The notes under the pieces are model-generated. The model was not told the origin of the DNA, made no database searches, and saw only the letters and a program-made list of their open reading frames with translations. A stretch of DNA of 64,000 bases from Alphaproteobacteria bacterium. Lineage in GTDB: Bacteria; Pseudomonadota; Alphaproteobacteria; SP197. How positions within the stretch are numbered: position 1 is the stretch's first letter; each line of letters opens with the position of its first letter. A program made the position numbers and the translations under genes. Location: the NCBI GenBank assembly GCA_965200215.1, contig OZ241369.1, positions 1,754-65,753 of the forward strand, in the 5' to 3' direction. Positions 22,516 to 58,044 of the stretch are shown one piece after another.

Positions 22516-22518
22516 CCC

Positions 22519-23815: not shown

Positions 23816-23833
23816 CAAGCACCGTGACTCCAA

Positions 23834-39823: not shown

Positions 39824-40000
39824 ACCCGCACCCCGCCCCCAGCCAGCCGTCCAGCCCACCCACGCACCGTTCCCCGAGCGCCGGCGCCCCGCCGGCAAAC
39901 GGGCCGAAGGCCCGTCAACGCACCACACGCTCACCGCCAGGCACCACCCCCACCACCCGCTCCCACCGGCCACCGACCACTGGCTACTGGCCACTAACCA
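39824..40000 (+). repeat. Dispersed intergenic repeat copy, + orientation.
   Basis: Near-identical to the 37882-38056 copy. Confidence 0.8.
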
Positions 40001-41692: not shown

Positions 41693-42017
41693 GCCCGCAC
41701 CCCGCCCCCAGCCAGCCGTCCAGCCCACCCACACACCGTTTCCCCGAGCGCCACCGCCAGGCACCCCCGCCAGCGTCACGCCCCCCGGCAGCACCCAACG
41801 CCCACCGCCAGGCACCGACTGAGCGTCCGCCCCCTGGGAGCGCCGGCGTCCCGCCGGCAAACGGGCCGCAAGGCCCGTCAACGCACAAGCGCCCACCGCC
41901 AGGCACCACACCCACCCCCGCTCCCACCGACCACTGGCCACTGGCTACTGGCCACTAACCACTAACCACTAACCACTAACCACTAACCACTAACCACTAA
42001 CCACTAACCACCCCCCA
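41693..42017 (+). repeat. Dispersed repeat (two cores) ending in a minisatellite of about 8 TAACCAC units (41941-42012).
   Basis: CCCCTGGGAGCGCCGGCGTCCCGCCGGCAAACGGGCCGCAAGGCCCGTCAACGCACAAGCGCCC... then CCACTGGCCACTGGCTACTGGCCACTAACCACTAACCACTAACCACTAACCACTAACCACTAACCACTAACCACTAACCACC. Confidence 0.85.
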
Positions 42018-43583
42018 TCATTCCGGCGCAGACAGCCAGAGGATCGGCCTCGGATTGTCGACGTACTGCCGCATCACGTGCCGCTTCTCCGCCCTCTGCT
42101 GCTCGAAGTTGGCCACATGCCAGCCGATCTGCGAGCGCTGCCACCAGGGAGCGCTCTCGGAGGCGCCATGCGCCTCCTGTTGCTCCAGCCAGCCCAGGAT
42201 GTTGTAGGACCAGGCGCCGACGAACTGCACCGCGACCGACCACAGCAGCGCCGCCCCGAACAGCGCCGCCACCCGCCGCCCGGCCATGACCCGTTCCATC
42301 GCCGGCAGCATCGACAGCGCCAGCAACGGCGCCGTATCGACGATCGACCGGTAGCCCCAGGCCGCCCCACCCCACCAATCGTACCACCGGGCGGCCACCA
42401 CGATCATCGCCAGAGCGGCGACCTGGAGCGGCACCAGAGGGCGCCAGCGCGCCTGCCTCCAGGCCAGCGCCATGCCCGCGAATCCGAACAGCAGCACCGG
42501 CGAATAGAACGCCAGGCCCCGTTGCGGGCTGACCAGCAGCCCCGGCAGGCTCTCCCACAGCGGCCCCGACCAGATGTCCCCGGACCCCGTGGTCAGGAGC
42601 GCGATGGCTCTCGACGCGATCGTCTGCCCGAACTCGAAGGGACTGCCGAACCACCAGGCGTTGTATGCGAACAGAACGACGGCGAAGGGCGCCCCGCCGG
42701 CGAGATAGGCGGGCAGGCGGCGCCGGTCCGCCCACAGCAGCCAGAGGCCCACGCACAGCGCCGCCAGGACGCTCGGAGGCCGGCACAGCACCGCCATCCC
42801 CAGCGCCGCCCCGCAACAGGCCCCGGGGCGCCGCCGTTCGGGAGAGGCGAGCAGGAAGAAGGCGCCCAGCGTCAGGAAGAAGGAGTTGGCCGGATGCTGC
42901 CACAGCGCCTGGCTGCTCACCGGCCAGGCGCAGCTTCCCAGCCCGAAGGCCAGGGCCACCAGCAGGGCCGGCAGGGGGGCGGCGAAGCGCCGCGCGGCCA
43001 GGAAGATCAGCAGCGCCGTGGCTGCGGTCAGCAGGGAGGCGGTCAGGGCGCCGCCATGCCACCACCAGTGGCGGTCGGCCTCGATGTCGGTGAACAGGTC
43101 GAGGGCGGCATAGACCGGCAGCCCGGTCAGCGCCGCCCCGATGCCGAAGGTGTTGACGAACACGCCCGGCTGCCTGCTTTCGACCACCCAGTAGCGCCCG
43201 GTTGGCACCAGCCGTCCCTGCTGGTACAGGGCGGCGGCCTCCCGGTTCCATTCGCTGACCCGGTTCCAGCTGTCGAGGATGGCGCCCTGCGCTTCCTCGC
43301 CGGCCTCTTCCAGCCTCCACCGGAAGGCGTCCGGCGCGTCCGCCGGCGTGAGCGAGAAGGAGTGCCGCTTCAGCAGGTTGACGCTGAACAGCATGTTGGC
43401 TTCCTGGTCGCCGCCGTAGAGAAAGTCGCCATTGCCCACATAGGCCCCGAAACAGGCCAGGAACAAAAGCGCGGGCAGAAGCATCCGCCGGCGGGGCTTC
43501 TCCACCGCCAGGCGCTGCGGCTTCGGCGCCGCAGCCCCGGGCCCAACCCGCCCCCGCACCTTTTTCCGGGCACTCCTCACCAC
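42018..43583 (-). CDS. Polytopic membrane protein, putative GT-C glycosyltransferase (ArnT/PMT-like); paralog A.
   Basis: 521 aa, more than 10 TM helices, N-terminal LLLPALLFLACFGAYVGNGDFLYGGDQEANMLFSVNLLKRHSF. GTG start. Near-identical core to paralog B. Family assignment is tentative. Confidence 0.6.
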   Translation of the reverse strand: MVRSARKKVRGRVGPGAAAPKPQRLAVEKPRRRMLLPALLFLACFGAYVGNGDFLYGGDQEANMLFSVNLLKRHSFSLTPADAPDAFRWRLEEAGEEAQGAILDSWNRVSEWNREAAALYQQGRLVPTGRYWVVESRQPGVFVNTFGIGAALTGLPVYAALDLFTDIEADRHWWWHGGALTASLLTAATALLIFLAARRFAAPLPALLVALAFGLGSCAWPVSSQALWQHPANSFFLTLGAFFLLASPERRRPGACCGAALGMAVLCRPPSVLAALCVGLWLLWADRRRLPAYLAGGAPFAVVLFAYNAWWFGSPFEFGQTIASRAIALLTTGSGDIWSGPLWESLPGLLVSPQRGLAFYSPVLLFGFAGMALAWRQARWRPLVPLQVAALAMIVVAARWYDWWGGAAWGYRSIVDTAPLLALSMLPAMERVMAGRRVAALFGAALLWSVAVQFVGAWSYNILGWLEQQEAHGASESAPWWQRSQIGWHVANFEQQRAEKRHVMRQYVDNPRPILWLSAPE

Positions 43584-43804
43584 CGCCTCCCCATCCCTCG
43601 CCAGTGTTTAGGTTCGAAAATGGGCAGGCACCGCTCGCCACCACCCCCAGGCACTGCCCAGGCAGCCCGCCCCCGGCGGGCCATCCGGCCCGTCAACGCA
43701 CCACACGCCCACCGCCAGGCACCACCACCAGCCATCCACTCTCACCGACCACTGGCCACTGGCCACCGACCACTAGCCACCGACCACTAGCCACTAACCC
43801 CCCA
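43584..43804 (+). repeat. Dispersed repeat with head hairpin (GGTTCGAAAATGGGCAGGCACCGCTCGCC), core and tail; + orientation.
   Basis: Head, core GGCGGGCCATCCGGCCCGTCAACGCACC, tail CCACTCTCACCGACCACTGGCCACTGGCCACCGACCACTAGCCACCGACCACTAGCCACTAACC. Confidence 0.78.
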
Positions 43805-45331
43805 TCATTCCCCCACAGACAGCCAGAGGATCGGCCCCGATTTGCCGGCATAGTCCCGCATGATCGCCTGCTTCAGCGCCCTCTGCGGCCCGAAATGGGC
43901 CACATGCCAGACGATCTGCGGGCGCGTCCACTGCCACAGGCTGGCCTTGTCCGGATCGTCGTGCTCCTGCCACTGTTTCATCCAGCCCACCTGGCTGTAG
44001 GACCAGGCGCCGACGAACTGCACCGCGACCGACCACAGCAGCGCCACCCCGAACAGCGCCGCCACCCGCCGCCCGGCCATGACCCGCTCCATCGCCGGCA
44101 GCATCGACAGCGCCAGCAGCGGCGCCGTATCGACGATCGACCGGTAGCCCCAGGCCGCACCGCCCCACCAGTCATACCACCGGGCGGCCACCACGATCAT
44201 CGCCAGGGCGGCGACCTGGAGCGGCACCAGAGGGCGCCAGCGCGCCTGCCTCCAGGCCAGCGCCATGCCCGCGAATCCGAACAGCAGCACCGGCGAATAG
44301 AACGCCAGCCCCCGTTGCGGGCTGAACAGCAGCCCCGGCAGGCTCTCCCACAGCGGCCCCGACCAGATGTCCCCGGACCCCGTCAGCGCCAGCGCGATGG
44401 CCCGCGACGATATTGTCTGCCCGAACTCGAAGGGGCTGCCGAACCACCAGGCGTTGTATGCGAACAGAACGACGGCGAAGGGCAGACCGCCGGCGAGATA
44501 GGCGGGCAGGCGGCGCCGGTCCGACCACAGCAGCCAGAGGCCCACGCACAGCGCCGCCAGGGCGCTCGGAGGCCGGCACAACACCGCCATCCCCAGCGCC
44601 GCCCCGCAATAGGCCCCATGGCGCCGCCGTTCGGGAGAGGCGAGCAGGAAGAAGGCGCCCAGCGTCAGGAAGAAGGAGTTGGCCGGATGCTGCCACAGCG
44701 CCTGGCTGCTCACCGGCCAGGCGCAGCTTCCCAGCCCGAACGCCAGGGCCACCAGCAGGGCCGGCAAGGGGGCGACGAAGCGCCGCGCGGCCAGGAAGAT
44801 CAGCAGCGCTGTGGCTGCGGTCAACAGGGAGGCGGTCAGGGCGCCGCCATGCCACCACCACCAGCGGTCGGCCTCGATGTCGGTGAACAGGTCGAGGGCG
44901 GCATAGACCGGCAGCCCGGTCAGCGCCGCCCCGATGCCGAAGGTGTTGACGAACACACCCGGCTGCGCGGTCGTGGCCAGATAATGGGCATAGGCGGTCG
45001 GCACCAGCCGCCCCTGCTCCCAGAGCGCGGCGTCGAAGGCGACGGCCCGCCCTTCCTCCGCCAGCTTCCAGTGGAAGGAGGCCGGCGCGTCCGCCAGGGT
45101 GAGCGAGAAGGAGTGCCGCTTCAGCAGGTTGACGCTGAACAGCATGTTGCCTTCCTGGTCGCTGCCGTAGAGGAAGTCGCCATTGCCCACATAGGCCCCG
45201 AAACAGGCCAGGAACAAAAGCGCGGGCAGGAGCATCCGCCGGCGGGGCTTCTCCACCGCCCGGCGCTGCGGCCCGGGCGGTGCCTGCCCAGCCCGCCCCC
45301 GCACCCTTTTTCGGGCACTTCTCACCACCAC
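43805..45331 (-). CDS. Polytopic membrane protein, putative GT-C glycosyltransferase; paralog B (tandem duplicate of 42018..43583).
   Basis: About 85% identical to paralog A over the TM core, with divergent N-proximal loop and C-terminal tail. Probable GTG start near 45325-45331 (VVVRSARKRVRG). Confidence 0.6.
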   Translation of the reverse strand: MVVRSARKRVRGRAGQAPPGPQRRAVEKPRRRMLLPALLFLACFGAYVGNGDFLYGSDQEGNMLFSVNLLKRHSFSLTLADAPASFHWKLAEEGRAVAFDAALWEQGRLVPTAYAHYLATTAQPGVFVNTFGIGAALTGLPVYAALDLFTDIEADRWWWWHGGALTASLLTAATALLIFLAARRFVAPLPALLVALAFGLGSCAWPVSSQALWQHPANSFFLTLGAFFLLASPERRRHGAYCGAALGMAVLCRPPSALAALCVGLWLLWSDRRRLPAYLAGGLPFAVVLFAYNAWWFGSPFEFGQTISSRAIALALTGSGDIWSGPLWESLPGLLFSPQRGLAFYSPVLLFGFAGMALAWRQARWRPLVPLQVAALAMIVVAARWYDWWGGAAWGYRSIVDTAPLLALSMLPAMERVMAGRRVAALFGVALLWSVAVQFVGAWSYSQVGWMKQWQEHDDPDKASLWQWTRPQIVWHVAHFGPQRALKQAIMRDYAGKSGPILWLSVGE

Positions 45332-45359
45332 CGCCTCCCGGGAGCCGACCCGATCGCAT

Positions 45360-45700
45360 GATAGCCGGGAAGCCTGAAGCCGGGCAGCCCGCCCCCGGCG
45401 GGCCATCCGGCCCGCCCATACACCATCCCCCCGAGCGCCGGCGTCCCGCCGGCAACGGGCCGAAGGCCCGCCAACGCACCGCCCCCACCGCCAGGCGCCA
45501 TCCCCCATTTCCCGCTCTCACTGACTACCAGCCACTGGCCACTGGTCACAAGCCAGAGCCCCGCCGGCAAACGGGCCGAAGGCCCGCCAACGCACCACCC
45601 CCCACCGCCAGGCACCACACCCCACCACCCGCTCTCACTAACCACTAGCCACTAGCCACTGGCACCACCGCCTGCCACTCACAGCCCCGCCACGCTTGGC
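45360..45700 (+). repeat. Dispersed repeat, two or three core units plus tail, + orientation.
   Basis: GGCGGGCCATCCGGCCCGCC, GAGCGCCGGCGTCCCGCCGGCAACGGGCCGAAGGCCCGCCAACGCACC and GCCGGCAAACGGGCCGAAGGCCCGCCAACGCACC, tail CCGCTCTCACTAACCACTAGCCACTAGCCACTGGC. Confidence 0.8.
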
Positions 45701-45750
45701 CACCCGCGCCCCATGCGCTAAGGTAGCGAACGAGACCGGCGGAAACCGCC

Positions 45751-46107
45751 ATGCCGAAGATCAACCCCTTCATCACCCTGTTCTTCGCCATCGCAGCCAT
45801 GAACGTCGTCTTGTTCGGCTGGCAGCGTGCCGACATGACCGCCCTGGAAGCGCGCTTTGCCGCCCTGGAAACTCGCATCGAGGAACGCTTCAACCGCATC
45901 GAAGCCGGACAGGTGGAGCTGCGCGAGCGCATGGTCCGCATCGAAGCCGGACAGACGGAGTTGCGCCAGCGCACGGCCCGCATCGAGGCCGGTCAGGCGG
46001 AGTTGCGCGAGCGCATGGCGCGCATCGAAGGCACGGTCGCCGGCGCCCTGGCCCGCCCCGACCGCCTCGCCCAGGCGCCCACCGAAGAAGCCGAAGCCGC
46101 CAACTGA
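45751..46107 (+). CDS. Small N-terminally membrane-anchored coiled-coil protein with RIEAGQxELR repeats (paralog of 10894..11262).
   Basis: MPKINPFITLFFAIAAMNVVLFGWQRADMTALE...RIEAGQVELRERMVRIEAGQTELRQRTARIEAGQAELRERMARIEGTVAGALARPDRLAQAPTEEAEAAN. Also shares 40 bp of upstream sequence with the 10894 copy. Confidence 0.6.
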   Translation: MPKINPFITLFFAIAAMNVVLFGWQRADMTALEARFAALETRIEERFNRIEAGQVELRERMVRIEAGQTELRQRTARIEAGQAELRERMARIEGTVAGALARPDRLAQAPTEEAEAAN

Positions 46108-46398
46108 AGGGCGCCCCCAGTACCGACCGAGCGTCCCGCCCCCCGGCGGGCCGCCAGGCCCGCCCACACACCGTTCCCCGAGCGCCGGCGTCCCGCCGGC
46201 AAACGGGCCGGAGGCCCGCCAACGCACCACTCGCCACCGCCAGGCACCACTCCCCACCACCCGCTCTCACCGACCACTGGCCACTGGCCACCAGTCAGAG
46301 CGCCGGCGTCCCGCCGGCAACGGGCCGAAGGCCCGTCAACGCACCGCCCCCACCACCAGGCACCATCGCCATTCCCCGCTCTCACTAGCCACTAACCA
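46108..46398 (+). repeat. Dispersed repeat, three core units plus tail, + orientation; the IS is inserted into its tail.
   Basis: GGCGGGCCGCCAGGCCCGCCCACACACC, GAGCGCCGGCGTCCCGCCGGCAAACGGGCCGGAGGCCCGCCAACGCACC and GAGCGCCGGCGTCCCGCCGGCAACGGGCCGAAGGCCCGTCAACGCACC, tail CCGCTCTCACTAGCCACTAACCACTAG. Confidence 0.8.
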
Positions 46399-46399
46399 C

Positions 46400-47251
46400 T
46401 AGGCTCAGGACCCATAAACGGTCTTGAGTATTGTTGTGAGAAGTGGTTCAAGCTCTTCCAGATATAGAGGAGGCTATCATGTCTGACCACCACTTCTGGT
46501 TATCGGATGCCCAGTTCGCCCGCATCCAGCCGCTGTTGCCCAACAAGGTGCGCGGTGTGCCCCGGGTCGATGACCGGCGCGTCATCTCGGGCATCATCCA
46601 CGTCATTCGCAACGGGCTGAGGTGGCGTGACGCGCCGCCTGAATACGGTCCTCACAAGACCCTCTACAACCGCTTCGTGCGCTGGAGCAGGGCTGGCGTA
46701 TTCGGACGCATCTTCGAGGCTCTGGCTGCCGACAGCCGGGCGTCGGGGACGGTGATGATCGACGCCACCTACCTGAAGGCTCACCGGACTGCGGCCAGCC
46801 TGCTCAAAAAGGGGCTTTTCCGCGATGTATCGGGCGTAGCCGAGGCGGCTTGAACTCGAAGCTGCACGCGGTTTGCGACGGCGATGGCAAGCCCTTGATC
46901 CTGCTGCTGACCGAGGGGCAGGCCAGCGACTACCGGGGTGCCGAGGCCATCTTGCCGGCAGTGCCGGACGCCGATGTCCTGATCGCCGACAAGGGCTATG
47001 ACAGCGACCGTTTCCGCCAAGCCCTGGCCGAACGGCGCATCGAGACATGCATCCCCGGACGGGCGAACCGCAAGAGGCCGGTAGAATATGACCCAAAGCT
47101 ATACCAGCGGCGAAACCTCATCGAACGGATGTTCGGAAGGCTCAAGGACTGGAGGCGCATCGCCACACGATACGACCGATGCGCGCACACCTTCTTTAGC
47201 GCTATCTGCATCGCCGCCACCGTCATCTTCTGGTTATGAGTCCTGAGCCTA
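46400..47251 (+). mobile_element. IS5-family (IS427-group) insertion sequence, about 850 bp. Terminal inverted repeats GGCTCAGGAC(C/T)CATAA. Transposase in two ORFs (orfA 46479..46853, orfB 46850..47239) joined by a probable -1 frameshift at CAAAAAG (46805-46811). Inserted at a CTAG site with a TA duplication.
   Basis: Left end ...CTAGGCTCAGGACCCATAAACGG. Right end CCGTTTATGAGTCCTGAGCCTAG (rc matches the left end). orfA MSDHHFWLSDAQFARIQPLLP... has the HTH. orfB ...GGLNSKLHAVCDGDGKPL...ADKGYDS has the DDE motifs. Lower GC than the flanks. Confidence 0.85.
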
Positions 47252-47381
47252 GCCAAAGCGCCGCCGCCCGCCGCCAGGCACCGCCACATCCTCGACCACC
47301 GCCGCCCCGCCCCGTGGCGGCCAGGGCCGGTTCGTGCTAGGCAAGCGGCTGCTCCCCGCAACGCCAGGACCGCCGCCCGCC

Positions 47382-48776
<1,395 letters not shown>

Positions 48777-48795
48777 CCGCCGCCGCCGGCAAGCC

Positions 48796-50448
48796 GTGGC
48801 CGCCCCGCCCGCATCGGCGTCCGCGCGCCTGCTGCCGGCCGCCGTGCTGGCGGTGGCGGCGCTGGTGGCGCTGCCGATCGTGGCCGTGGCGCTGAACCTG
48901 TTCGCCGACAGCGGCGGCCTGTGGCAGCGGCTGGCGGCCCGCGCCCTGCCGGTCTATCTGCTCAACACGGCGGTGCTGCTGGCCGGCGTCGGCCTCGTGG
49001 CGGCCATCGTCGGCACCGGCACCGCCTGGCTGGTGACGGCCTGCGACTTCCCCGGCCGCCGCGCCGTGGAATGGGCGCTGCTGCTTCCCTTCGCCGTGCC
49101 CGCCTATGTGCTGGCCTACGTCTATACCGACCTGCTGGAATTCGCCGGCCCGGTGCAGACGGCACTGCGCGAGGCGTTCGGCTGGTCCAGGGGCGAATAC
49201 TGGTTCCCCGCCATCCGCTCCACCTCCGGGGCCGTCGCCATGCTGTCGCTGGCCCTCTACGCCTATGTCTATCTGCTGGTGCGCGCCGCCTTCCTGGCCC
49301 GCTCGGTGGCGCTGGCCGAGGCGGCGCGCAGCCTGGGGCAGGGGCCGTGGCGGGCCTTCCTGACGGTGGCGCTGCCCATGGCCCGGCCCGGCCTGGCGGC
49401 GGGCCTCGCGCTGGCACTGATGGAGACTCTGGCCGATTTCGGCACCGTGGAGTTCTTCGGCGTGCGCACCTTCACCACCGGCATCTATCGCAGCTGGTTT
49501 CTGCGCGGCTCGCCGGTGGCGGCCGGCCAGCTCGCCAGCGTCCTGATGCTCTTCGTCTTCGCCGTCCTGGCCCTGGAAGCCGCCTCGCGCGGGCGCGCGC
49601 GCTATGCCAGCGGCAACGCCCGCTTCGCCCCGCCCGCCCGCTGCCGCCTGACCGGCTGGAAGGCCGCGCTCGCCGCCCTGGCCTGCTGGCTGCCGGTGGC
49701 GCTGGGCTTCCTGCTGCCGGCCGCCGTGCTGCTCTTCTTGAGCCTGACGCGGGGCGACCGCCTGTTCGGCGCCGCCTTCCTGCCGCTGGCGGCGAACACG
49801 GTGACGGTGGCCTCGCTGGCGGCGCTGCTGGCGCTGGCGGCGGCGCTGTTGCTGGGCTATGGCGGGCGGCTGCGCCCGTTCGCCCGCTGGGCCGCCCGCT
49901 TCGCCACGCTGGGCTATGCCGTTCCCGGCTCGGTGATCGCCGTCGGCGTGCTGCTGCCGCTGGCCCGCTTCGACAACGCCCTCGACGGCTGGATGCGCGC
50001 CGCCTTCGGCGTCTCCACCGGGCTGCTGCTCACCGGTTCCGTCGCCGCCCTGCTGTTCGCCTATGTCGTCCGTTTCCTGGCGGTCGCCTGCAACGCCGTC
50101 GATGCCGGGCTGGCCAGGGTGACGCCCGCCATGGACGACGCCGCCCGCAGCCTGGGCCACGGTCCGGCCTCGACTCTGGCCCGCGTCCACGCGCCGCTGC
50201 TGAAGGGCAGCCTGCTTTCCGGCGCCCTGCTGGTGTTCGTGGACGTGACCAAGGAACTGCCGGCGACGCTGCTGCTGCGCCCCTTCGGCTTCGAGACGCT
50301 GGCCACCAGGGTCTATCGCCTGGCGGCCGACGAGCGCCTCGCGGAAGCCTCGACGGCGGCGCTGGCGATCGTCGCCGTCGGGGCCGTTCCCGTCTTCCTG
50401 CTGTCGCGGGCCATCACCCGCTCGCGCCCGGGCGGCGCCCCGCCGTGA
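48796..50448 (+). CDS. Fe(3+) ABC transporter permease (FbpB-like, fused double TMD).
   Basis: Two repeats of the ABC TMD with EAA-like loops (AARSLGQGPWRAFLTVALPMARPG; AARSLGHGPASTLARVHAPLLKGS). 550 aa. Confidence 0.85.
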   Translation: MAAPPASASARLLPAAVLAVAALVALPIVAVALNLFADSGGLWQRLAARALPVYLLNTAVLLAGVGLVAAIVGTGTAWLVTACDFPGRRAVEWALLLPFAVPAYVLAYVYTDLLEFAGPVQTALREAFGWSRGEYWFPAIRSTSGAVAMLSLALYAYVYLLVRAAFLARSVALAEAARSLGQGPWRAFLTVALPMARPGLAAGLALALMETLADFGTVEFFGVRTFTTGIYRSWFLRGSPVAAGQLASVLMLFVFAVLALEAASRGRARYASGNARFAPPARCRLTGWKAALAALACWLPVALGFLLPAAVLLFLSLTRGDRLFGAAFLPLAANTVTVASLAALLALAAALLLGYGGRLRPFARWAARFATLGYAVPGSVIAVGVLLPLARFDNALDGWMRAAFGVSTGLLLTGSVAALLFAYVVRFLAVACNAVDAGLARVTPAMDDAARSLGHGPASTLARVHAPLLKGSLLSGALLVFVDVTKELPATLLLRPFGFETLATRVYRLAADERLAEASTAALAIVAVGAVPVFLLSRAITRSRPGGAPP

Positions 50449-50499
50449 CGCCGGGGCGGGCGCCGTCACGGCGCGGGCGGGATCGCCGCCGGGGCCCGC

Positions 50500-51522
50500 T
50501 CACTTCCAGCCATTGGCCTCCATGATCTCCAGGGCCAGCGCCCGCCTGGCGCCGAAGGCGGCGGCGTCGATGTCGTCGTCGGCGAAGCTGCCATAGAGGT
50601 CGTCGAGCACCGTGGCATGGGCGATGCCTTCCACCGCCGGCCATTCGTTGTTGCCTTCGGCGAAGGCCCGCTGCGCCTCGTCGCCGGCCAGGAACTCCAG
50701 CAGGGCTATGGCGTTGTCGGCATGGGGCGCGTTGGCGGCGACACCGGCCCCGCTGACGTTGACGTGGACGCCGCGGTCCCCCTGGTTGGGCAGGATGACG
50801 GCGATGTTCTCCGCGATGGCGGCGTCGGCGGCATCGTCGGAGCGCATCAGCCTCGCCAGGTAATAGCTGTTGGCGACGGCGATGTCGCATTCGCCGGCGG
50901 CCACCGCCTTGATCTGGCCGGTGTCGTTGGATTCGGGCTCGCGCGCCATGTTGGCCACCAGTCCGCGCACCCAGGCCGCCGTCGCCTCTTCGCCGTTGGC
51001 CGCGATCAGCGAGGCCACCAGCGACTGGTTGTAGACGTTGCCCGACGAGCGGATGCAGACGCTGCCGGCGAAGCGGGGATCGGCGAGGTCTTCGTAGCGT
51101 TCCAGGCCCGCCGCATCGAAGCCCTTGCGATACATGACGACGCGCGCGCGCCGGGTGAAGGCGAACCACAGGCCGTCTTCGTGGCGCAGATGGGCCGGGA
51201 TGCGCCGCTCGAGCAGGGGCGAGGAGACCGGTCGCAGGAGGCCGCGCCCGGCCGCCTCCATCAGATTGCCGGCATCGACGGTCATGAAGACGTCGGCGGG
51301 GCTGTTGGCGCCCTCGGCGGCCAGGCGCTCGATCAGCGCCCCGGCCTTGCCCTCGACCACGTTGACGGCGATGCCGGTGGCGTTGGTGAAAGCCTCGTAG
51401 AGGGCGGTGTCGCTGTCGTAATGGCGGGAGGTGTAGAGGTTGACCTCGTCCTGGGCGGCACTCGGCGGCGAGGCGAGGGCGGCCGCCAGAACGCAGGCGG
51501 CGAGCGGCAGTCGAAAGCGCAT
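50500..51522 (-). CDS. Fe(3+) ABC transporter periplasmic binding protein (FbpA/AfuA-like).
   Basis: Signal peptide MRFRLPLAACVLAAALASPPSAAQ. NLYTSRHYDSD...VFMTVDAGNL are typical iron SBP motifs. Convergent with the permease; no ATPase gene adjacent. Confidence 0.85.
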   Translation of the reverse strand: MRFRLPLAACVLAAALASPPSAAQDEVNLYTSRHYDSDTALYEAFTNATGIAVNVVEGKAGALIERLAAEGANSPADVFMTVDAGNLMEAAGRGLLRPVSSPLLERRIPAHLRHEDGLWFAFTRRARVVMYRKGFDAAGLERYEDLADPRFAGSVCIRSSGNVYNQSLVASLIAANGEEATAAWVRGLVANMAREPESNDTGQIKAVAAGECDIAVANSYYLARLMRSDDAADAAIAENIAVILPNQGDRGVHVNVSGAGVAANAPHADNAIALLEFLAGDEAQRAFAEGNNEWPAVEGIAHATVLDDLYGSFADDDIDAAAFGARRALALEIMEANGWK

Positions 51523-51599
51523 GGCGCATCTCCAAGGTTTGCGATTGCAAGTGACTTGCAATCTCGAAGAAGGCACCATAAGCCCCCCACAACAACGGC

Positions 51600-51860
51600 G
51601 CAAGGGGGTTAAAACGGCAGCAGCGCCCCGGCTCGAACACGGCCAGGCACCGCCGGTGCCACAGGCCCCGGCGGGCTGAAAGGCCCGCCCCCGCACGAAA
51701 TTCCCCCAAGCGCCAGCGTCCCACCGCCAGGCACCGACCGAGCGTCCCGTCCCCTGGGAGCGCCGGCGTCCCGCCGGCAAACGGGCCGTAAGGCCCGCCA
51801 ACGCACCACCCCTCACCGCCAGGCACCACACCCCACCACCCGCTCTCACCAACCACCAGC
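51600..51860 (+). repeat. Dispersed repeat with degenerate head, two cores and tail; + orientation.
   Basis: GGCTCGAACACGGCCAGGCACCGCC... GGCGGGCTGAAAGGCCCGCC... CCCTGGGAGCGCCGGCGTCCCGCCGGCAAACGGGCCGTAAGGCCCGCCAACGCACC, tail CCGCTCTCACCAACCACCAGCCACC. Confidence 0.78.
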
Positions 51861-51956
51861 CACCGCCCACAACGCCAACCGATCCACCACCAACCTGCTA
51901 CGATAAACGGGCACCAAAACCCGCTGCGGCACCCCGCCGCGCGAAAGGAGTCGGCG

Positions 51957-52993
51957 ATGGCGGCACCGGCGATGGCCGACTGGAACACGGAAGCATTCTG
52001 GAAAACCGCCACGGAGGCGGACGTCTCGCGCTGCCTGGCGGACGGCGCCGACCCGAAGGCGCGAGCCGAGGACGGGATGACACCCCTGCACCATGCGGCG
52101 GCGGGTAGCGCGGCTCCGGCTGTGGTGACGGCGTTGCTTGATGCCGGCGCCGGCCTGGAAGCGCGGGACGAAGGCCGACGGACACCTCTGTACCGGGCGG
52201 CGGCGTTCAGCAAGGCCCCGCTGGTGGTAGTGGCGCTGCTGGACGCCGGCGCCGATCTGGAAGCGCGGGACGAAGTCGGGGGGACACCCCTGCATGTGGC
52301 GGCAGCGCTCAGCAAGGTCCCGGCGGTGGTAGTGGCGCTGCTGGGCGCTGGCGCCGATCTGGAAGCGCGGAGCGGAGGCGGGCTGACACCCTTGCATGTG
52401 GCGGCGGCGCTCAGCAAGGTCCCGGCGGTGGTAGTGACGCTGCTGGGAGCTGGCGCCGATCTGGAAGCGCGGACCGAAGGTGGACAGACACCTCTGCACC
52501 GGGCGGCGGCGTTCAGCAAGGTCCCGGCGGTGGTAGTGGGGTTGCTGGACGCCGGCGCCGATCTGGAAGCGCGGGACGAGGACGGGGCGACGCCCTTGCA
52601 CTATGCAGCGGGGTGGAACAAGACCCCGGCGGTGGCGACGGCGTTGCTGGATGCCGGTGCCGACCCGGCGGCACGGACCGAAGGCGGGCGGACGCCCCTG
52701 CATATAGCGGCGACGTTCAGCAAGACCCCGGTGGTAGTGACGGCGTTGCTGGCCGCTGGCGCCGATCTGGAAGCGCGGGATGAATACGGATGGACGCCTC
52801 TGCATGTGGCGGCGGTGGGCAGCGAGGCCCCCCCTCGGCGGTGGTGACGGCGCTGCTGGCTGCCGGCGCTAACCCGGCGGCGAGAGACGCGGACGGCTGC
52901 ATCCCCTGGGATCTCATCGAGGACGACTCTCCGCTCAAGGGAAGCGACGTCTATCGGCAGTTGAAAGACGCCCGCTTCCAGCGGCGGCGGTGA
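51957..52993 (+). CDS. Ankyrin-repeat protein (8-9 ANK repeats) interrupted by a -1 frameshift in a C7 homopolymer at 52829-52835. A C8 tract would restore a 345-aa ORF.
   Basis: Repeats of the type G(x)TPLH(x)AAxxSKxPAVVVALLxAGADLEARD. Frame 1 stops at 52847 (..GSEAPPRRW*). Frame -1 (52790..52993) continues the ANK consensus (SAVVTALLAAGANPAARDADGCIPWD...). Confidence 0.75.
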
Positions 52994-53084
52994 GCAGGAC
53001 CCTGGCGGTGACAGCGCTGGATGCTGGCGCCGCAAGCAGCATGGCTACGGCCTGCGCCGCCAGCAACGACGGCAGGCGGTAACG

Positions 53085-53290
53085 CCTCGGTTTGAAAATG
53101 GGCAGGTGCCGTTTGCCGCTACTTCCCAGGCGTCCCGCCTCCAGGCACCGACCGAGCGTCCCGCCCCCTGGGAGCGCCGGCGTCCCGCCGGCAAACGGGC
53201 CGAAGGCCCGCCGACACACCGCCCCCACCGCCGGGCACTGCCGCCATTTCCCGCTCTCACTAACCACTGACCACTGACCGAAGCGCCGGC
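53085..53290 (+). repeat. Dispersed repeat (head hairpin + core + tail), + orientation; left boundary of BrnTA cassette copy 1.
   Basis: CGGTTTGAAAATGGGCAGGTGCCGTTTGCC head, GGGAGCGCCGGCGTCCCGCCGGCAAACGGGCCGAAGGCCCGCCGACACACC core, CCGCTCTCACTAACCACTGACCACTGACC tail. Confidence 0.8.
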
Positions 53291-53342
53291 GCGCGAGAGG
53301 CGGCGTAGAAAAACATTGTGATTCTTCGCCCCCGTGCGGCGG

Positions 53343-53600
53343 TCACACAGTGCCGTTTCTCCCGATCCACTCCCGAAGCGCCTCGTCGATCCGCGTCTGC
53401 CAGCCGTGACCTCCGGCCTTGAAGTGATCGATCACGTCCCGCGACAGGCGGATCGTCGTCGATACCTTCGGTTTGGCGACCGGCGGCCGGCCGCGCCGAA
53501 CAGCCGTCTTGGCGAACTTTTCCGGCCAACCGTCTTCGGAAAGGTCAGGCGCGGTGTCCCGATCGAAATCTCGGGCCATAGAGCGTTCGTTCCCGTTCAT
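53343..53600 (-). CDS. brnA: BrnA-family antitoxin (copy 1).
   Basis: RRGRPPVAKPKVSTTIRLSRDVIDHFKAGGHGWQTRIDEALREWI is the BrnA signature (RHH-like). Confidence 0.75.
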   Translation of the reverse strand: MNGNERSMARDFDRDTAPDLSEDGWPEKFAKTAVRRGRPPVAKPKVSTTIRLSRDVIDHFKAGGHGWQTRIDEALREWIGRNGTV

Positions 53601-53833
53601 TGGCTTTCCTCACACTAATGATCCGATGCGCACCGTCGCGCGGTGTCCAGACCAGGACCACCATCGCGCCGTCGAGAAACCCCACGGTGATGAAGCGGTC
53701 CTCAACCATAGTCCCGCCGGTCGTCCTCGATGGTCAGCGTGGCACCCGCGAACACCTCCCCAGCCCGGGCCATATCCAGCCCCCTGACCCTGAGCGTGGC
53801 CGCGCGCTTCGCCGCGTCAAACTCAATCGGCAT
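53545..53833 (-). pseudogene. brnT: BrnT-family (DUF497) toxin gene with a +1 frameshift (extra T in GGT[T]GAG at ~53702); copy 1.
   Basis: N-terminal ORF MPIEFDAAKRAATLRVRGLDMARAGEVFAGATLTIEDDRRDYG* (ends 53702). The BrnT C-terminus continues in the +1 frame: EDRFITVGFLDGAMVVLVWTPRDGAHRIISVRKANERE.... The identical lesion is present in copy 2. Confidence 0.6.
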
Positions 53834-53919
53834 GATTAATGTTACAACACTAAATCTGCTTGTCCAAGAGATTCCTCATTCCCCGGCTAAGGCCGGAAAG
53901 TCAGGGCTTCCTGGGTAGT

Positions 53920-54060
53920 GCCTCGGTTTGAAAATGGGCGGATGGTGTTTGCCACCCCCGGGGCAGGCCGCCCCCGGGAGCGCCGGCGTCCCGCCGGAAA
54001 ACGGGCCGCAAGGCCCGTCAACGCACCACCCGCCCACCGCCAGGCGATCGAGCGGCCGGA
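53920..54060 (+). repeat. Dispersed repeat (head hairpin + core), + orientation; right boundary of BrnTA cassette copy 1.
   Basis: CGGTTTGAAAATGGGCGGATGGTGTTTGCCACC plus CCCGGGAGCGCCGGCGTCCCGCCGGAAAACGGGCCGCAAGGCCCGTCAACGCACC. Confidence 0.78.
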
Positions 54061-54084
54061 GGCATCGCCGGCGGCCATCGGGGG

Positions 54085-54546
54085 CTAGCTGTCGAGCTTG
54101 GGCAGGTCCGGCAGCTGGCCGAACGCGATGCCTTCGTCGCGCAATTGCCGGGCCTGGTCGCGGGTCGCCTGGCCGTAGATGTTGCGCCGCTCGCCCTCGC
54201 CGTAGTGGATCTTGCGCGCCTCCTCGGCGAAACCGGTGCCGACGTCGTCGAAATGACGCTCCACATGCTCCTTCAGGGCGTGCATCATGGCCACGGCACC
54301 GCTCGTCTTTTCCTTGTGCCGGGCGAGCGTCACCCGCTCCTTCCCCTTCGCCTCGGCGGGCGCCTCTCCGCCGGCCCCGCCGCCGGTCGCCACATGGGGA
54401 GCCATCAACGCCTTCTCCACCCTGGTATCGCCGCAGACCGGGCAGGCGATGCCGCCCGCCTCGGCCTGGGCGCGGAAATCGTCGCTGCTGCGGAACCAGC
54501 CCTCGAACACATGGTCCTTGCCGCATTTCACGTCGAAGACGATCAT
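54085..54546 (-). CDS. DUF1178-family zinc-ribbon protein.
   Basis: MIVFDVKCGKDHVFEGWFRSSDDFRAQAEAGGIACPVCGD is the characteristic DUF1178 N-terminus. Confidence 0.8.
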   Translation of the reverse strand: MIVFDVKCGKDHVFEGWFRSSDDFRAQAEAGGIACPVCGDTRVEKALMAPHVATGGGAGGEAPAEAKGKERVTLARHKEKTSGAVAMMHALKEHVERHFDDVGTGFAEEARKIHYGEGERRNIYGQATRDQARQLRDEGIAFGQLPDLPKLDS

Positions 54547-54566
54547 GGCCCGTGCCGACTCCGGCG

Positions 54567-55172
54567 ATGCCACCCGACTATATGGACCTCGCGATGGCGG
54601 CGGACAAGACGGCGCGGGCGGCCGGCCCGGCGCCCAGCCCCTGGATCCTGCGTTTCGCGCCGCAGGTGGCCGCCGGCGGCACGGTGCTGGACGTAGCGGC
54701 CGGCAGCGGCCGCCACGCCCGCCTGTTCCTGGCGCGCGGCCACAGCGTGGTGGCGGTGGACCGCAGGCCGGACGGCCTGGCGGACATCGCCCGCCATCCC
54801 CTGGCCCGCATCGTGAAGGCCGACCTGGAAGACGGCGGCCCCTGGCCCTTCGGCGAGCGGCGCTTCGCGGCCGTGGTGGTGACCAATTACCTCCATCGCC
54901 CGCTGCTGCCCGCATTGGTGGCGGCGGTGGCCACCGGCGGCCACCTGCTCTACGAGACCTTCGCGCGGGGCAACGAGCGCTTCGGCCGCCCCGCCAACCC
55001 CGACTTTCTGCTCCGTCCGGGCGAACTGCTGCGGGCGGTCGCCGGCCAGCTGCGCGTCGTCGCCTATGAGGACCGCATCGTCCGCCGCCCGCGTCCGGCG
55101 GCCGTGCAGAGGATCTGCGCCCGCCGCGAGGGCTACTCCGCCGCTTCGTCCAGCGCCAGCGGCGGCGCATAG
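54567..55172 (+). CDS. Class I SAM-dependent methyltransferase.
   Basis: SAM-binding motif VLDVAAGSGRHARLFLARGHSVVAVD. Confidence 0.75.
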   Translation: MPPDYMDLAMAADKTARAAGPAPSPWILRFAPQVAAGGTVLDVAAGSGRHARLFLARGHSVVAVDRRPDGLADIARHPLARIVKADLEDGGPWPFGERRFAAVVVTNYLHRPLLPALVAAVATGGHLLYETFARGNERFGRPANPDFLLRPGELLRAVAGQLRVVAYEDRIVRRPRPAAVQRICARREGYSAASSSASGGA

Positions 55173-55981
55173 GGCCGGTCGTGCGCCAGGGCGGGGACGG
55201 TCGCCCGCACCCGCGCCACCTCGGCCATATCGACCTCGGCCATGCACAAGCCCGTGCCGACGCCGGCATCGGCGAGCACCCGCCCCCAGGGATCGACGAT
55301 CAGCGAATGGCCGCAGGTGCGCCGCCCGCCGGGATGATGCCCCGTCTGGCAGGCGGCGAAGACGAAGGCGCCGCATTCGATGGCGCGCGCCCGCAGCAGC
55401 ACCTCCCAATGGGCGTCGCCGGTCACCTTGGTGAAGGCGGCCGGCACGCTCAGCAGCACGGCCCCGGCCTTGGCGAGATCGCGGTAGAGATGGGGAAAGC
55501 GCAGGTCGTAGCAGACCGTCATGCCCAGCTTTCCCCAGGGCGTGGACGCCAGCACCGCCTTGCCGCCGGGATGGAACATGGCCGATTCCCGGTAGCGCGA
55601 GCCATCCGGCAGATCCACGTCGAACATGTGGATCTTCTCGTAATCGGCGACCGTGCGCCCGCATCCGTCGAACAGGAAGGCGTGGTTGGCGAGGGTGCCG
55701 TCGGCGCGCAGGGCGGCGACCGAGCCGGCCTGCAGCCATATCCCGGTCTCGGCGGCGACGGCGGCGAAGGCCCGCAGCGCCGGATGGTCGGCGGGGCGGT
55801 GCGCGTTCTCCAGCCGCTCCTCCTCGCTGGCCGCCATCAGGGCGACGTTCTCCGGCAGGCCGACCAGATGAGCGCCTTTCGCCGCCGCTTCGCGCACCAG
55901 GGCGCAGGCGGCGGCGATGTTGGCGTCCATGTCGAGCTGCGCGTTCACCTGCACGCAGGCGATTTTCAGAGGGGCGCTCAT
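55133..55981 (-). CDS. Carbon-nitrogen hydrolase (nitrilase superfamily amidohydrolase).
   Basis: Catalytic E (GLPE), K (YEKIHMFD) and C (TVCYDLRFP) triad. Confidence 0.85.
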   Translation of the reverse strand: MSAPLKIACVQVNAQLDMDANIAAACALVREAAAKGAHLVGLPENVALMAASEEERLENAHRPADHPALRAFAAVAAETGIWLQAGSVAALRADGTLANHAFLFDGCGRTVADYEKIHMFDVDLPDGSRYRESAMFHPGGKAVLASTPWGKLGMTVCYDLRFPHLYRDLAKAGAVLLSVPAAFTKVTGDAHWEVLLRARAIECGAFVFAACQTGHHPGGRRTCGHSLIVDPWGRVLADAGVGTGLCMAEVDMAEVARVRATVPALAHDRPYAPPLALDEAAE

Positions 55982-56238
55982 GCGGCCTCGCCCAGCCTGG
56001 CGTCCAGCAGGCCGTCGCGCTCCAGCGCGTGCAGCTCGTCGCAGCCGCCCACCGGCTCGCCGTCGATCACGACCTGCGGCACGGTGCGGGCGCCGCACAA
56101 CGCCTCCATCTCGGCGCGCCGGGCGGCATCCATCGTCACGTCGATCTCGCGAAAGGCGACGCCCTTGGCGCGCAACAGGCGCTTCGCCCGCTCGCAGAAC
56201 GGGCACAGAATGCCAGTATAGACGACCACCTCGGCCAT
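55978..56238 (-). CDS. grxC: Glutaredoxin 3.
   Basis: VVVYTGILCPFCERAKRLL (CPFC active site) ... TVPQVVIDG. Confidence 0.9.
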   Translation of the reverse strand: MAEVVVYTGILCPFCERAKRLLRAKGVAFREIDVTMDAARRAEMEALCGARTVPQVVIDGEPVGGCDELHALERDGLLDARLGEAA

Positions 56239-56284
56239 GGGCCGAAACTAAGGCATGGCCCGCCCACCCGCAAGTGGGCAGTGC

Positions 56285-56460
56285 CCCGGTTTGAAAATGG
56301 GTAGGCGCCATTCACCGCCATCCCCAGGCGCCCCCCTGGGAGCGCCGGCGTCCCGCCGGCAAACGGGCCAAAGGCCCGTCAACGCACTGCCCCCACCGCC
56401 AGGCACTACCGCCATTTTCCCGCTCTCACTAACCACTAACCACTGACCAAAGCGCCGGCG
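56285..56460 (+). repeat. Dispersed repeat (head hairpin + core + tail), + orientation; left boundary of BrnTA cassette copy 2.
   Basis: CGGTTTGAAAATGGGTAGGCGCCATTCACCGCC, GGGAGCGCCGGCGTCCCGCCGGCAAACGGGCCAAAGGCCCGTCAACGCAC, CCGCTCTCACTAACCACTAACCACTGACC. Confidence 0.8.
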
Positions 56461-56511
56461 CGCGAGAGGCGGCGTAGAAAAACATTGTGATTCTTCGCTC
56501 CCGTGCGGCGG

Positions 56512-56769
56512 TCACAAAGTGCCGTTTCTCCCGATCCACTCCCGAAGCGCCTCGTCGATCCGCGTCTGCCAGCCGTGACCTCCGGCCTTGAAGTGATCGA
56601 TCACGTCCCGCGACAGGCGGATCGTCGTCGATACCTTCGGTTTGGCGACCGGCGGCCGGCCGCGCCGAACAGCCGTCTTGGCGAACTTTTCCGGCCAACC
56701 GTCTTCGGAAAGGTCAGGTGCGGTGTCCCGATCGAAATCTCGGGCCATAGAGCGGTCGTTCCCGTTCAT
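56512..56769 (-). CDS. brnA: BrnA-family antitoxin (copy 2; 1 aa different from copy 1).
   Basis: Same sequence as 53343..53600 apart from E5D. Confidence 0.75.
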   Translation of the reverse strand: MNGNDRSMARDFDRDTAPDLSEDGWPEKFAKTAVRRGRPPVAKPKVSTTIRLSRDVIDHFKAGGHGWQTRIDEALREWIGRNGTL

Positions 56770-57002
56770 TGGCTTTCCTCATGCTGATGATCCGATGCGC
56801 GCCGTCGCGCGGTGTCCAGACCAGGACCACCATCGCGCCGTCGAGAAACCCCACGGTGATGAGGCGGTCCTCAACCATAGTCCCGCCGGTCGTCCTCGAT
56901 GGTCAGCGTGGCACCCGCGAACACCTCCCCAGCCCGGGCCATATCCAGCCCCCTGACCCTGAGCGTGGCCGCGCGCTTCGCCGCGTCAAACTCAATCGGC
57001 AT
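56714..57002 (-). pseudogene. brnT: BrnT-family toxin gene with the same +1 frameshift (copy 2).
   Basis: Identical TATGGTTGAGGACCGC junction to copy 1; N-terminal 43-aa ORF then the BrnT C-terminus in the +1 frame. Confidence 0.6.
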
Positions 57003-57089
57003 GATTAATGTTACAACACTAAATCTGCTTGTCCAAGAGATTCCTCATTCCCCGGCTAAGGCCGGAAAGTCAGGGCTTCCTGGGTAGTG

Positions 57090-57265
57090 CCTCGGTTTGA
57101 AGATGGGCAGGCGCCATTCACCGCCATCCCCAGGCGCCCCCCTGGGAGCGTCGGCGTCCCGCCGGCAAACGGGCCGCAAGGCCCGCCAACGCACCACACG
57201 CCCACCGCCAGGCACCATCCCCACCCCCGCTCCCACCGACCACTGGCCACTAACCACTATCCACC
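57090..57265 (+). repeat. Full-length dispersed repeat (head hairpin + core + tail), + orientation; right boundary of BrnTA cassette copy 2.
   Basis: CGGTTTGAAGATGGGCAGGCGCCATTCACCGCCATCCCCAGGCGCCCCCCTGGGAGCGTCGGCGTCCCGCCGGCAAACGGGCCGCAAGGCCCGCCAACGCACCACACGCCCACCGCCAGGCACCATCCCCACCCCCGCTCCCACCGACCACTGGCCACTAACCACTATCC. Confidence 0.85.
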
Positions 57266-57294
57266 CAGCGCGCGCCCCGCCCGGCGACCGCCCG

Positions 57295-58044
57295 TCAGGG
57301 GAAGACGACCCGCGCCAGCACGGCGACATCGACCCGCGCCGCGCCTGCCCGCCTGAGCGCCGCGGTGCAGGCTCCGACCGTAGCGCCGGTGGTCATCACG
57401 TCGTCGATCAGCAGCACGCGGCGGTCTTCGACGGCGGCGGCGCGGCGGCCCCGCACGGCGATGGCGCCGCGCAGATTGGCGATCCGCTGGTGCCGGTCCA
57501 GCCCGCCCTGGGAGGACGTGGCCCGGCGGCGGACCAGCAGGTCGGGCATGGCGGGGCGGCTGGCGCGGCGCGCCAGGGCATTGGCCAGCAGGGCCGACTG
57601 GTTGAACCGCCGCCACCACAGCCGCCGCCAGTGCAGCGGCACCGGGCAGACGATCTCCGCCTCGGCCAGCGCCTCCGCGCTCACCAACTCCAGCCAGCGG
57701 ACGAAGACGTCGAGATGGTGCAGGCGGTCGCCGCGCTTGAAGCCGACCAGCAGCTGCGCGATGGTGTTGTTGTAGCGCAGCGCGGCGCGGGCGCGATCGA
57801 AGGCCGGCGGTTGGGCGGCGCAGCCGGCGCATATCGCCTTCGGCCCGTGGTCCAGACGGAAGGGCAGGCCGCAGCGCGCGCATTGGGGCGCAGAGATGAA
57901 GTCCAGACCCGACCAGCAGGTCCCGCACAGCGCGCCCTGCAGGTGGACGATTTCGCCGCAGGCGAGGCAGCGCGGCGGCAGCGCGGTATCGACGGCGCGC
58001 CTGCCGGCCCGCTTCAGGAAGGCGAGCGAATGCATAGGCGCCAT
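57295..58044 (-). CDS. comF: ComF-family phosphoribosyltransferase (double zinc ribbon + PRT domain).
   Basis: CLACGEIVHLQGALCGTCWSGL...CARCGLPF (two zinc ribbons) and the PRPP-binding VLLIDDVMTTGATV. Confidence 0.8.
   Translation of the reverse strand: MAPMHSLAFLKRAGRRAVDTALPPRCLACGEIVHLQGALCGTCWSGLDFISAPQCARCGLPFRLDHGPKAICAGCAAQPPAFDRARAALRYNNTIAQLLVGFKRGDRLHHLDVFVRWLELVSAEALAEAEIVCPVPLHWRRLWWRRFNQSALLANALARRASRPAMPDLLVRRRATSSQGGLDRHQRIANLRGAIAVRGRRAAAVEDRRVLLIDDVMTTGATVGACTAALRRAGAARVDVAVLARVVFP

Follow-up and report, generated by a model that had tools for sequence, protein, structure and literature searches.

A co-oriented REP-type mosaic repeat in the intergenic regions of an alphaproteobacterial contig, with relatives that flank RAYT genes in other genomes

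Results

Anatomy of the element at 57087-57265

We analysed a 64,000-nucleotide stretch of contig OZ241369.1 (assembly GCA_965200215.1, Alphaproteobacteria bacterium), hereafter the window, and focused on an intergenic element at 57087-57265, which an earlier note on this DNA had read as a structured RNA transcribed from the plus strand, with a small RNA or a terminator or stabiliser like the repetitive extragenic palindromic (REP) sequences as candidates. The element is one complete copy of a modular, mosaic intergenic repeat, and all of its parts lie on the plus strand. It opens with a head module (57087-57137) that holds a head hairpin, GAUGG-7 nt-CCAUU, at 57102-57118. The conserved 5' foot of the REP hairpin, CTGGGAGC, follows at 57142-57149 and leads into hairpin 1 (REP1), GTCGGCG-TCC-CGCCGGC, at 57150-57166; after an AA spacer comes hairpin 2 (HP2), A-CGGGCC-GCAA-GGCCCG-C, at 57169-57186. 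Both hairpins that the note had described as perfect 7-bp stems exist, but in this copy the 7-bp stem of hairpin 1 (GUCGGCG/CGCCGGC) includes one U-G pair, and hairpin 2 consists of a 6-bp stem with an unpaired outer A-C. A C-rich, G-poor tail (57187-57236) includes CCACCGCCAGGCACC and, at its end, CCGCTCCCAC, and the copy closes with four NNNCCAC heptamers, CGACCAC, TGGCCAC, TAACCAC and TATCCAC, at 57237-57264. GGGAGC was the most frequent foot, both in the window and across phyla, and the foot CTGGGAGC of the flagged copy could pair with CGCTCCC at 57228-57234.

The composition of the tail was strongly skewed. The 80 nt located 3' of hairpin 2 averaged 51% C and 19% G, giving a C/G ratio of 2.7; across the window the median ratio was 1.19 and the 95th percentile 2.26, and no 80-nt stretch of the window reached a G/C ratio of 3 or more, indicating that the bias is one-sided. 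On the minus strand the heptamer run reads (GTGGNNN)n, or more narrowly (GTGG-YYR)n, for example at 41932-42012, 30534-30566 and 57237-57264. Read in this way, the heptamers are tandem copies of GT[AG]G, the canonical guide tetranucleotide of tyrosine transposases associated with REPs (RAYTs), with the foot of the REP hairpin, CTGG-GAGC, on the opposite strand; GTGG occurs in the element only in this minus-strand reading.

Copy number, orientation and genomic context

The window has a GC content of 71% and a negative GC skew throughout. The repeat family contributes 28 cores in about 27 clusters, which together take up no less than 4.7 kb (7.3%) of the window. Hairpin 1 gave 65 matches at three or fewer mismatches, a count that includes minus-strand self-matches of the palindrome, compared to 7.8 ± 3.3 in dinucleotide shuffles, and hairpin 2 gave 19 matches compared to 2.3. 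A fuzzy search of the window that allowed indels located foot plus hairpin 1 in 28 copies and hairpin 2 in 35 on the plus strand, and no copy of either hairpin on the minus strand. The modules of the mosaic returned by a repeat finder were a 'pre' motif, hairpin 1, two versions of hairpin 2, CCACCGCCAGGCACC, CCGCTC(T/C)CAC and the heptamer runs.

All cores were extragenic, none of them lying in a segment with the codon-position GC signature of coding DNA. They occupied 22 intergenic regions, 12 between two minus-strand genes, 4 between convergent genes, 4 between divergent genes and 2 between two plus-strand genes, and only 6 of the 22 lay downstream of a plus-strand gene. Since all copies are plus-oriented in every gene context, their orientation does not follow transcription, and in the 12 regions between minus-strand genes a plus-strand RNA would be antisense to its neighbours. 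After discounting the Glyco_transf_22 array and the BrnT/BrnA duplication described below, about 17 independent insertion sites remained, for which we estimate the two-sided binomial probability of a single orientation at about 1.5e-5. Third-codon-position skew was negative on the plus strand, overall, for genes of both orientations; when the giant gene and the paralogue array were left out, its strand component was only about -0.05 by our arithmetic.

Turnover between close strains

In four metagenomic contigs, which match the window at 95-99% identity over 15-36 kb, the elements have the orientation seen in the window. Four sequences showed four states at the site orthologous to 24850-25050, namely heptamers only, heptamers with part of the tail, tail with a decayed hairpin 1 and no hairpin 2, and the full unit, and the junctions of these states fell in short G/C-rich direct repeats. 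The array between yidC and yidD (29160-29535) had 2, 2, 3 and 3-4 units in close strains, the number of units also differed between strains in the array at 31.3-31.6 kb, and the heptamers varied in both number and sequence. The units at 29160-29535 sit within the conserved rnpA-yidD-yidC cluster, between yidD and yidC.

The hairpin core recurs across phyla beside RAYT genes

The exact 23-mer GAGCGCCGGCGTCCCGCCGGCAA (GGGAGC-GCCGGCG-TCC-CGCCGGC-AA), which has counterparts in the window such as the copy at 57142-57168, was searched for in one genome of each species. The 23-mer was present at no fewer than 87 loci from at least ten phyla, including Acidobacteriota, Verrucomicrobiota, Lentisphaerota, Bacteroidales, Gamma- and Alphaproteobacteria, Planctomycetota, Chloroflexota and others. 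It also occurred in low-GC Bacteroidales and Victivallis metagenome-assembled genomes (MAGs), and it sits inside longer repeats that are specific to each genome. No description of a cross-phylum REP with this 23-mer was found in the searchable literature when the hairpin sequence and its sub-strings were used as queries. Across phyla the feet were GGGAGC, TGGAGC or GGGAAC. Among the loci listed, the 23-mer usually had CCTGG 5' of it and often an inverted copy at a distance of a few dozen bases, 86 of the 165 REP1-like hits had an inverted partner within 200 nt, and the feet lay outside in 34 of 38 adjacent inverted REP1 pairs at these foreign loci. In one Thiohalocapsa MAG (L066, 5032-5108) the REP hairpin is arrayed head-to-tail without a spacer, with a 27-nt period.

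We then clustered the open reading frames (ORFs) within 1.5 kb of the motif to find recurrent neighbours. The only protein family that recurred beside it across three phyla was a HUH/Y1 protein some 180 aa long that carries the motifs NHVH and Y-x-x-x-NP and matches Pfam Y1_Tnp. Against NCBIfam REP_Tyr_transpos (cutoff 80) it reached 103 and 90 bits, and its sole PDB sequence match was E. coli TnpAREP (4ER8, E = 4e-10). At E <= 1e-10 the RAYT family to which it belongs comprises at least 7991 members, many of which carry the name RayT in their sources; in about 20 of the top 120 members, hairpin-encoded peptides (AGVPPA, GGTPAL, APASRR) stood near the predicted ORF ends.

In other genomes the RAYT gene was flanked by inverted REP1 copies, and palindromes of the motif flanked it at loci L044, L067, L071, L096, L097 and L098. 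At L096 and L097 (68-69% GC) the flanking sequence was the two-hairpin unit itself, foot plus hairpin plus CGGGCC-loop-GGCCCG, which reads cctgggagc-GCGGGCG-TCC-CGCCCGC-a-ACGGGCC-gaa-GGCCCG at L096 and cctgggagc-GCGGGCA-TCT-TGCCCGC-at-CGGGCC-gaag-GCCCG at L097. Arrays of the unit with a period of 106-116 nt lie on both sides of the RAYT gene at L097 (9599-11756), in opposite orientations. The C-rich tail was absent from the RAYT-linked units of other genomes. The description 'REP-like' in the note was thus borne out: RAYT genes elsewhere are flanked by relatives of the core, a palindrome of the REP type.

The REP1 stems of these units carried compensated changes (GCGGGCG/CGCCCGC at L096, GCGGGCA/TGCCCGC at L097). 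Across 63 distinct variants, gathered by sequence similarity alone, hairpin 1 covaried at 4 of its 7 pairs, with 20 double-change cells compared to 2.1 ± 1.3 after shuffling; none of 500 shuffled trials reached the observed count. Hairpin 1 is therefore under selection for pairing. Because HUH/Y1 enzymes recognise this kind of hairpin on single-stranded DNA (PMC6006769), the covariation cannot separate RNA from DNA.

The two-hairpin junction pattern was found in one unrelated contig of the JGI metagenomes and in none of the viral contigs, the element had no match among PLSDB plasmids, a protein search with an element-encoded peptide gave no match, and the window's rightmost gene was absent from the records searched. 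A genome reached via close BrnA homologues lacked the elements, and exact look-ups of window sequence returned syntenic strains only. The high-GC RAYT candidate P0029 was rejected as the RAYT of the window's lineage, its locus having only 2-3 REPs and no hairpin 2.

Stem, loop and folding evidence within the window

The earlier note had argued for RNA-level selection from compensatory and wobble substitutions under variable loops, and had proposed covariation analysis and comparison with Rfam as checks. We aligned all 28 window cores and imposed the two stems. The results showed that 95% of the stem cells paired and that the 7-bp and 6-bp hairpins were present in 27-28 of the 28 copies. No compensatory, two-sided change was found in the core stems of these copies, and the covariation score (0.005) equalled that of shuffles. 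RNAalifold returned the same two hairpins from the 28 cores; its covariation term was +0.22, and none of the 13 pairs was compensated. The core stems are simply invariant among the window copies.

The wobble pairs ran against the claim that they favour a plus-strand RNA. Among the single-sided changes in hairpin 1, one was a U-G on the plus strand (the flagged copy), two were wobbles only on the minus strand (30479 and 31533) and one was unpaired on either strand. The outer pair of hairpin 2 was A-U in 16 of 28 copies and unpaired in the other 12, of which 11 were clean A-C, a G-U only on the minus strand, and one was the degenerate copy at 29264. When all stems were taken together, including the head, 13 non-standard cells were G-U only on the minus strand and 5 only on the plus strand. 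The loop of hairpin 2 does vary between copies, as had been noted (GAA 9, GCAA 7, GCA 3, GCCA 3, GGA 2, GTCA 1, GTAA 1, AAA 1), but only 8 of 27 loops are of the GNRA type, and a conserved GNRA tetraloop was rejected.

The head module was present in only 5 copies (30404, 53095, 53935, 56300 and 57105). The examples cited for its hairpin were correct, and both the change from U-A to C-G and the G-U pairs are real: one pair is UA in 2 copies, UG in 2 and CG in 1, and the G-U cells, four altogether, would be mismatches on the minus strand. However, four of the five copies are two pairs derived from a segmental duplication, spaced by 806 bp, around the two BrnT/BrnA units, and the covariation was not significant, with shuffles reaching the observed values in 304 of 500 trials. 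A correlation between foot variant and tail variant was also considered as evidence for a closing stem and was rejected, with too few informative copies.

Folding of the 179-nt element gave -64 kcal/mol (z = -1.9) as plus-strand RNA, z = -0.4 as minus-strand RNA and z = -2.2 as DNA. At the gathering threshold, Rfam recognised only the signal recognition particle (SRP) RNA at 141-236 in the window and no family for the element, and a search of 56230-57300 at E <= 10 gave nothing relevant. No hairpin followed by a T-run was found at any element in 45300-57400, where three intrinsic-terminator-like sites lie elsewhere. The hairpins are followed by CAACGCACC on the plus strand and by GCTCCCAGG on the minus strand rather than by a U-run, and an intrinsic (Rho-independent) terminator was rejected for lack of a U-tract. 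A CRISPR array was rejected because the repeats lack unique spacers, and integron attC sites were rejected because the elements adjoin large housekeeping genes, which lie on both strands.

Other element clusters and neighbouring genes

All other clusters in the window likewise lie on the plus strand. Clusters with a single REP1 were found at 4371-4527 (REP1 at 4438), 5819-6108 (5950), 9592-9761 (9638), 10697-10826 (10710), 11272-11353 (11309), 11865-11988 (11878), 45395-45662 (45437) and 51667-51849 (51762), as well as at 24880-25014 (24893), the site at which four close strains each differ in state. Two REP1 copies were present at 22224-22480 (22237 and 22394) and at 46116-46385 (46184 and 46302). 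The array at 31298-31619 has three units (31344, 31418 and 31533), and that between yidC and yidD (29160-29535) has 3-4, in a strain-dependent number. Besides the flagged copy, the head module was carried by the elements at 30394-30568 (REP1 at 30479), between rpmH and a GST gene, at 53086-53260 (53176), a paralogue of the copy that starts at 56282, at 53918-54027 (53982), a paralogue of the flagged copy, and at 56282-56429 (56344). Partial copies consisted of an HP2-type hairpin and tail (23129-23217) or an HP2-type hairpin, tail and heptamers (23630-23729 and 43610-43797), and tail and heptamers only were found at 34165-34242 and, cut by the start of the window, at 6-78.

A tandem array of six paralogues of about 570-650 aa occupies 34256-45508 (minus strand), assigned to Pfam Glyco_transf_22 by homology to the L089 gene calls. 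A repeat element separates successive paralogues, including those at 36039-36140 (REP1 at 36077), 37890-38053 (37936), 39871-40004 (39880) and 41757-42007 (41842, with a long heptamer run); in the related strain L088, phage-type integrases replace part of the array. Two near-identical BrnT/BrnA-type toxin-antitoxin units lie at 53343-53839 and 56512-57003 (minus strand), and are spaced so that elements recur at 806 bp. Each unit has a repeat element on either side and a match to a sigma-70-like promoter (TGGACA-16-TAACAT). BrnA homologues with 80-94% identity occurred in very many unrelated assemblies.

An ORF of about 3640 aa at 11990-22912 (minus strand) is built of repeats of about 345 nt (115 aa). 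It is probably a giant adhesin, given the faint LapA and Calx-beta hits of its orthologue in L088. An ankyrin-repeat protein with seven 102-nt tandem repeats is encoded at 51957-52847 (plus strand). The bacterial small SRP RNA (Rfam RF00169, 62 bits) at 141-236 (plus strand) stands after a truncated repeat element and before a dnaX-like ORF. Homopolymers (C15 at 82-96 and G17 at 22917-22933) lie next to repeat clusters, and a region of lower GC content (about 65%) at 23800-24850, bounded by repeat elements, carries SocA/Panacea and HigB-like toxin-antitoxin genes by homology to L088.

Discussion

The repeat unit is present in high copy number, is strictly extragenic and changes fast between close strains. 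We favour the reading, at a probability of roughly 0.72, that it is a mosaic family of the REP type, comparable to the bacterial interspersed mosaic elements (BIMEs), that a RAYT encoded outside the window recognises the foot plus hairpin as single-stranded DNA and spreads the unit, and that slippage reshapes the arrays. The functional unit that we propose is the foot CTGGGAGC, the 7-bp GC hairpin REP1, 1-2 nt and the 6-bp hairpin CGGGCC-loop-GGCCCG; the C-rich tail and the heptamer run are an extension of this two-hairpin unit in the window's lineage. The conserved pairing is most simply understood as a DNA hairpin signal. A RAYT encoded elsewhere in the genome would recognise the foot and hairpin on single-stranded DNA and would cut and rejoin the single-stranded unit, thereby spreading it; such recognition would hold the stems and the foot constant while the loops drift. 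Slippage or recombination between the short C-rich direct repeats would then expand, shrink or delete units and heptamers locally. The orientation on one strand would be best fitted by insertion into single-stranded DNA at the replication fork, modelled on the related IS200/IS605 transposases, or by selection against the opposite orientation, and any effect on transcripts would be secondary.

Several observations weigh against this reading. No RAYT gene was found in the 64-kb window, and none could be tied to the window's lineage. A GT[AG]G foot has been reported for most REP-associated subclasses (Quentin et al. 2018, PMC6006769), whereas the foot in the window is CTGG-GAGC; some RAYT classes do have atypical feet (PMC6006769). 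None of the 28 copies has a minus-strand partner that would form an inverted doublet, and the REPIN model regards singlets as immobile remnants (PMC3116915), while the window copies are all singlets or direct arrays. The differences between strains could be deletions only, without ongoing transposition. Part of the copy number stems from gene and segmental duplication, so that the independent insertions number only about 17. On one 64-kb stretch with uniform negative skew, a relation of orientation to replication would be hypothetical, and with a codon-position-3 strand component of about -0.05 the plus strand is only weakly assigned as the lagging-type strand.

The alternative that the element acts as a structured plus-strand RNA, be it a small RNA or, at the 3' end, a REP-like stabiliser or terminator, whose stems are kept by selection on the transcript, is unlikely. 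E. coli REPs stabilise upstream mRNA, and the stronger fold of the plus strand (z = -1.9 compared to -0.4 on the minus strand), the four G-U cells and the single U-A to C-G change of the head hairpin, which fit the plus strand only, and the commoner tail variant CGCTCTC, whose pairing with the foot GGGAGCG includes a G-U available on the plus strand alone, would all suit such a role; judged from coordinates, most plus-strand transcription units in the window also end 3-50 nt from an element. Against this, the element folds equally non-randomly as DNA (z = -2.2), the 28 cores show no covariation in their stems, cells that wobble only on the minus strand outnumber those that do so only on the plus strand by 13 to 5, and the head evidence comes from five copies, four of them from a segmental duplication, which 304 of 500 shuffles match. 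The transcript would moreover be antisense in 12 of the 22 regions, and neither U-tract terminators nor an Rfam family at E <= 10 were found at the elements. The selection on a plus-strand RNA proposed earlier is accordingly unproven rather than refuted, since cross-genome covariation would be expected equally of a single-stranded DNA hairpin recognised by a HUH transposase.

A related possibility, which could coexist with a REP origin, is that two hairpins followed by about 80-110 nt of C-rich, unstructured, rut-like RNA form a polar Rho-dependent terminator or insulator, whose co-oriented copies would stop transcription in the plus direction, including antisense transcription into minus-strand genes. 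Rut sites are C-rich and G-poor, as is the 80 nt after hairpin 2 (51% C, 19% G, C/G 2.7 compared to a median of 1.19) with its one-sided bias, the orientation is uniform and independent of gene direction, and none of the three intrinsic-terminator-like sites in 45300-57400 is at an element. We nevertheless consider it improbable: the argument is purely compositional and speculative, some elements lie in divergent promoter regions and in the rnpA-yidD-yidC cluster, where no obvious plus-strand target for a terminator is present, and the absence of the C-rich tail from RAYT-linked units elsewhere means that the tail may be a lineage-specific by-product of slippage. The least likely alternative, to which we give very little weight, is a transposase-free motif of chromosome polarity that is G-rich on the minus strand, selected for orientation in the manner of Chi or FtsK sites and spread by recombination and duplication. 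It would account for the complete uniformity of orientation over about 17 independent sites, for the GTGG, GGTGG and GGGNGGG-like motifs repeated on the minus strand and for the negative GC skew throughout the window, but the analysis yielded no specific polar octamer, and other genomes have the same hairpin in both orientations. Conservation moreover falls on the unit of hairpin and foot, which elsewhere flanks RAYT genes, and not on the G/C-skewed tail, which is variable and often missing.

Beyond the REP-type reading itself, a wider version may be entertained, though we regard it as rather doubtful: REP singlets, inserted by a single-strand transposase into only one strand relative to the movement of the replication fork, would be replication-polar, with all copies of a replichore pointing one way, their C-rich tails would act as one-way Rho stops to transcription running against the dominant gene direction, and RAYT and REP would travel together between phyla. 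The last part of this would follow from the foot-plus-hairpin core being identical from Bacteroidales to Acidobacteriota and Proteobacteria, which would not fit strictly vertical descent. A 23-nt REP core that is identical across phyla is at odds with the view of REP-RAYT systems as lineage-bound and vertically inherited. A flip of orientation at the origin and terminus of replication, if it occurs, would count as direct genomic evidence for a coupling of REP spread to replication; a literature search on strand bias of REPs found nothing. That a genomic repeat keeps its stems while its loops vary does not count as evidence of an RNA.

Compared to known systems, the family combines familiar features with some unusual ones, namely strict co-orientation, the lack of inverted doublets, and C-rich and heptamer tails. 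As with the REPs and BIMEs of E. coli and their TnpAREP (4ER8), the units are short, GC-rich, imperfect palindromes with a conserved 5' foot, extragenic copies run into the hundreds in E. coli and form a mosaic with other conserved motifs, and, here in other genomes, copies of the palindrome flank the cognate HUH/Y1 gene, whose protein matches 4ER8. The E. coli foot is GTAG instead of CTGG-GAGC, however, and the window unit has two tandem hairpins with a C-rich tail and a heptamer run attached. Measured against BIMEs, the mosaic of 6-7 modules is present, but REPs alternate in BIMEs whereas successive copies in the window are all direct repeats on one strand. The foot and the start of the stem, TGGGAGCG, resemble the Pseudomonas REP GTGGGAGCG.

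The REPINs of Pseudomonas fluorescens SBW25 and others (PMC3116915) are paralleled by the REP1 copies of foreign genomes, which mostly form inverted doublets with the feet outside; the window family differs in comprising singlets and direct arrays (0 of 28 inverted), yet its sites differ between close strains. The REPtrons of class 2 TnpAREP (PMC6006769) are paralleled at L067 and L097, where inverted unit arrays flank the gene on both sides, and the associated proteins carry the class 2 signature of NHVH, W-x-x-E-Y-F-D-R-Y and Y-I-x-x-N-P; the window REP lacks the GT[AG]G foot of most REP-associated subclasses. The IS200/IS605 elements (IS608, ISDra2) share a related transposase fold and the recognition of subterminal DNA hairpins, and they insert into and excise from the lagging-strand template (PMC6006769), a targeting that would give an orientation on one strand like that of the window. 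They differ in that the window element has neither a transposase gene nor defined left and right ends. The cyanobacterial short tandemly repeated repetitive (STRR) sequences are likewise tandem intergenic heptamers whose copy number varies between strains; they have another sequence, and the heptamers of the window, in a host with 71% GC, are the tail of a REP-type unit.

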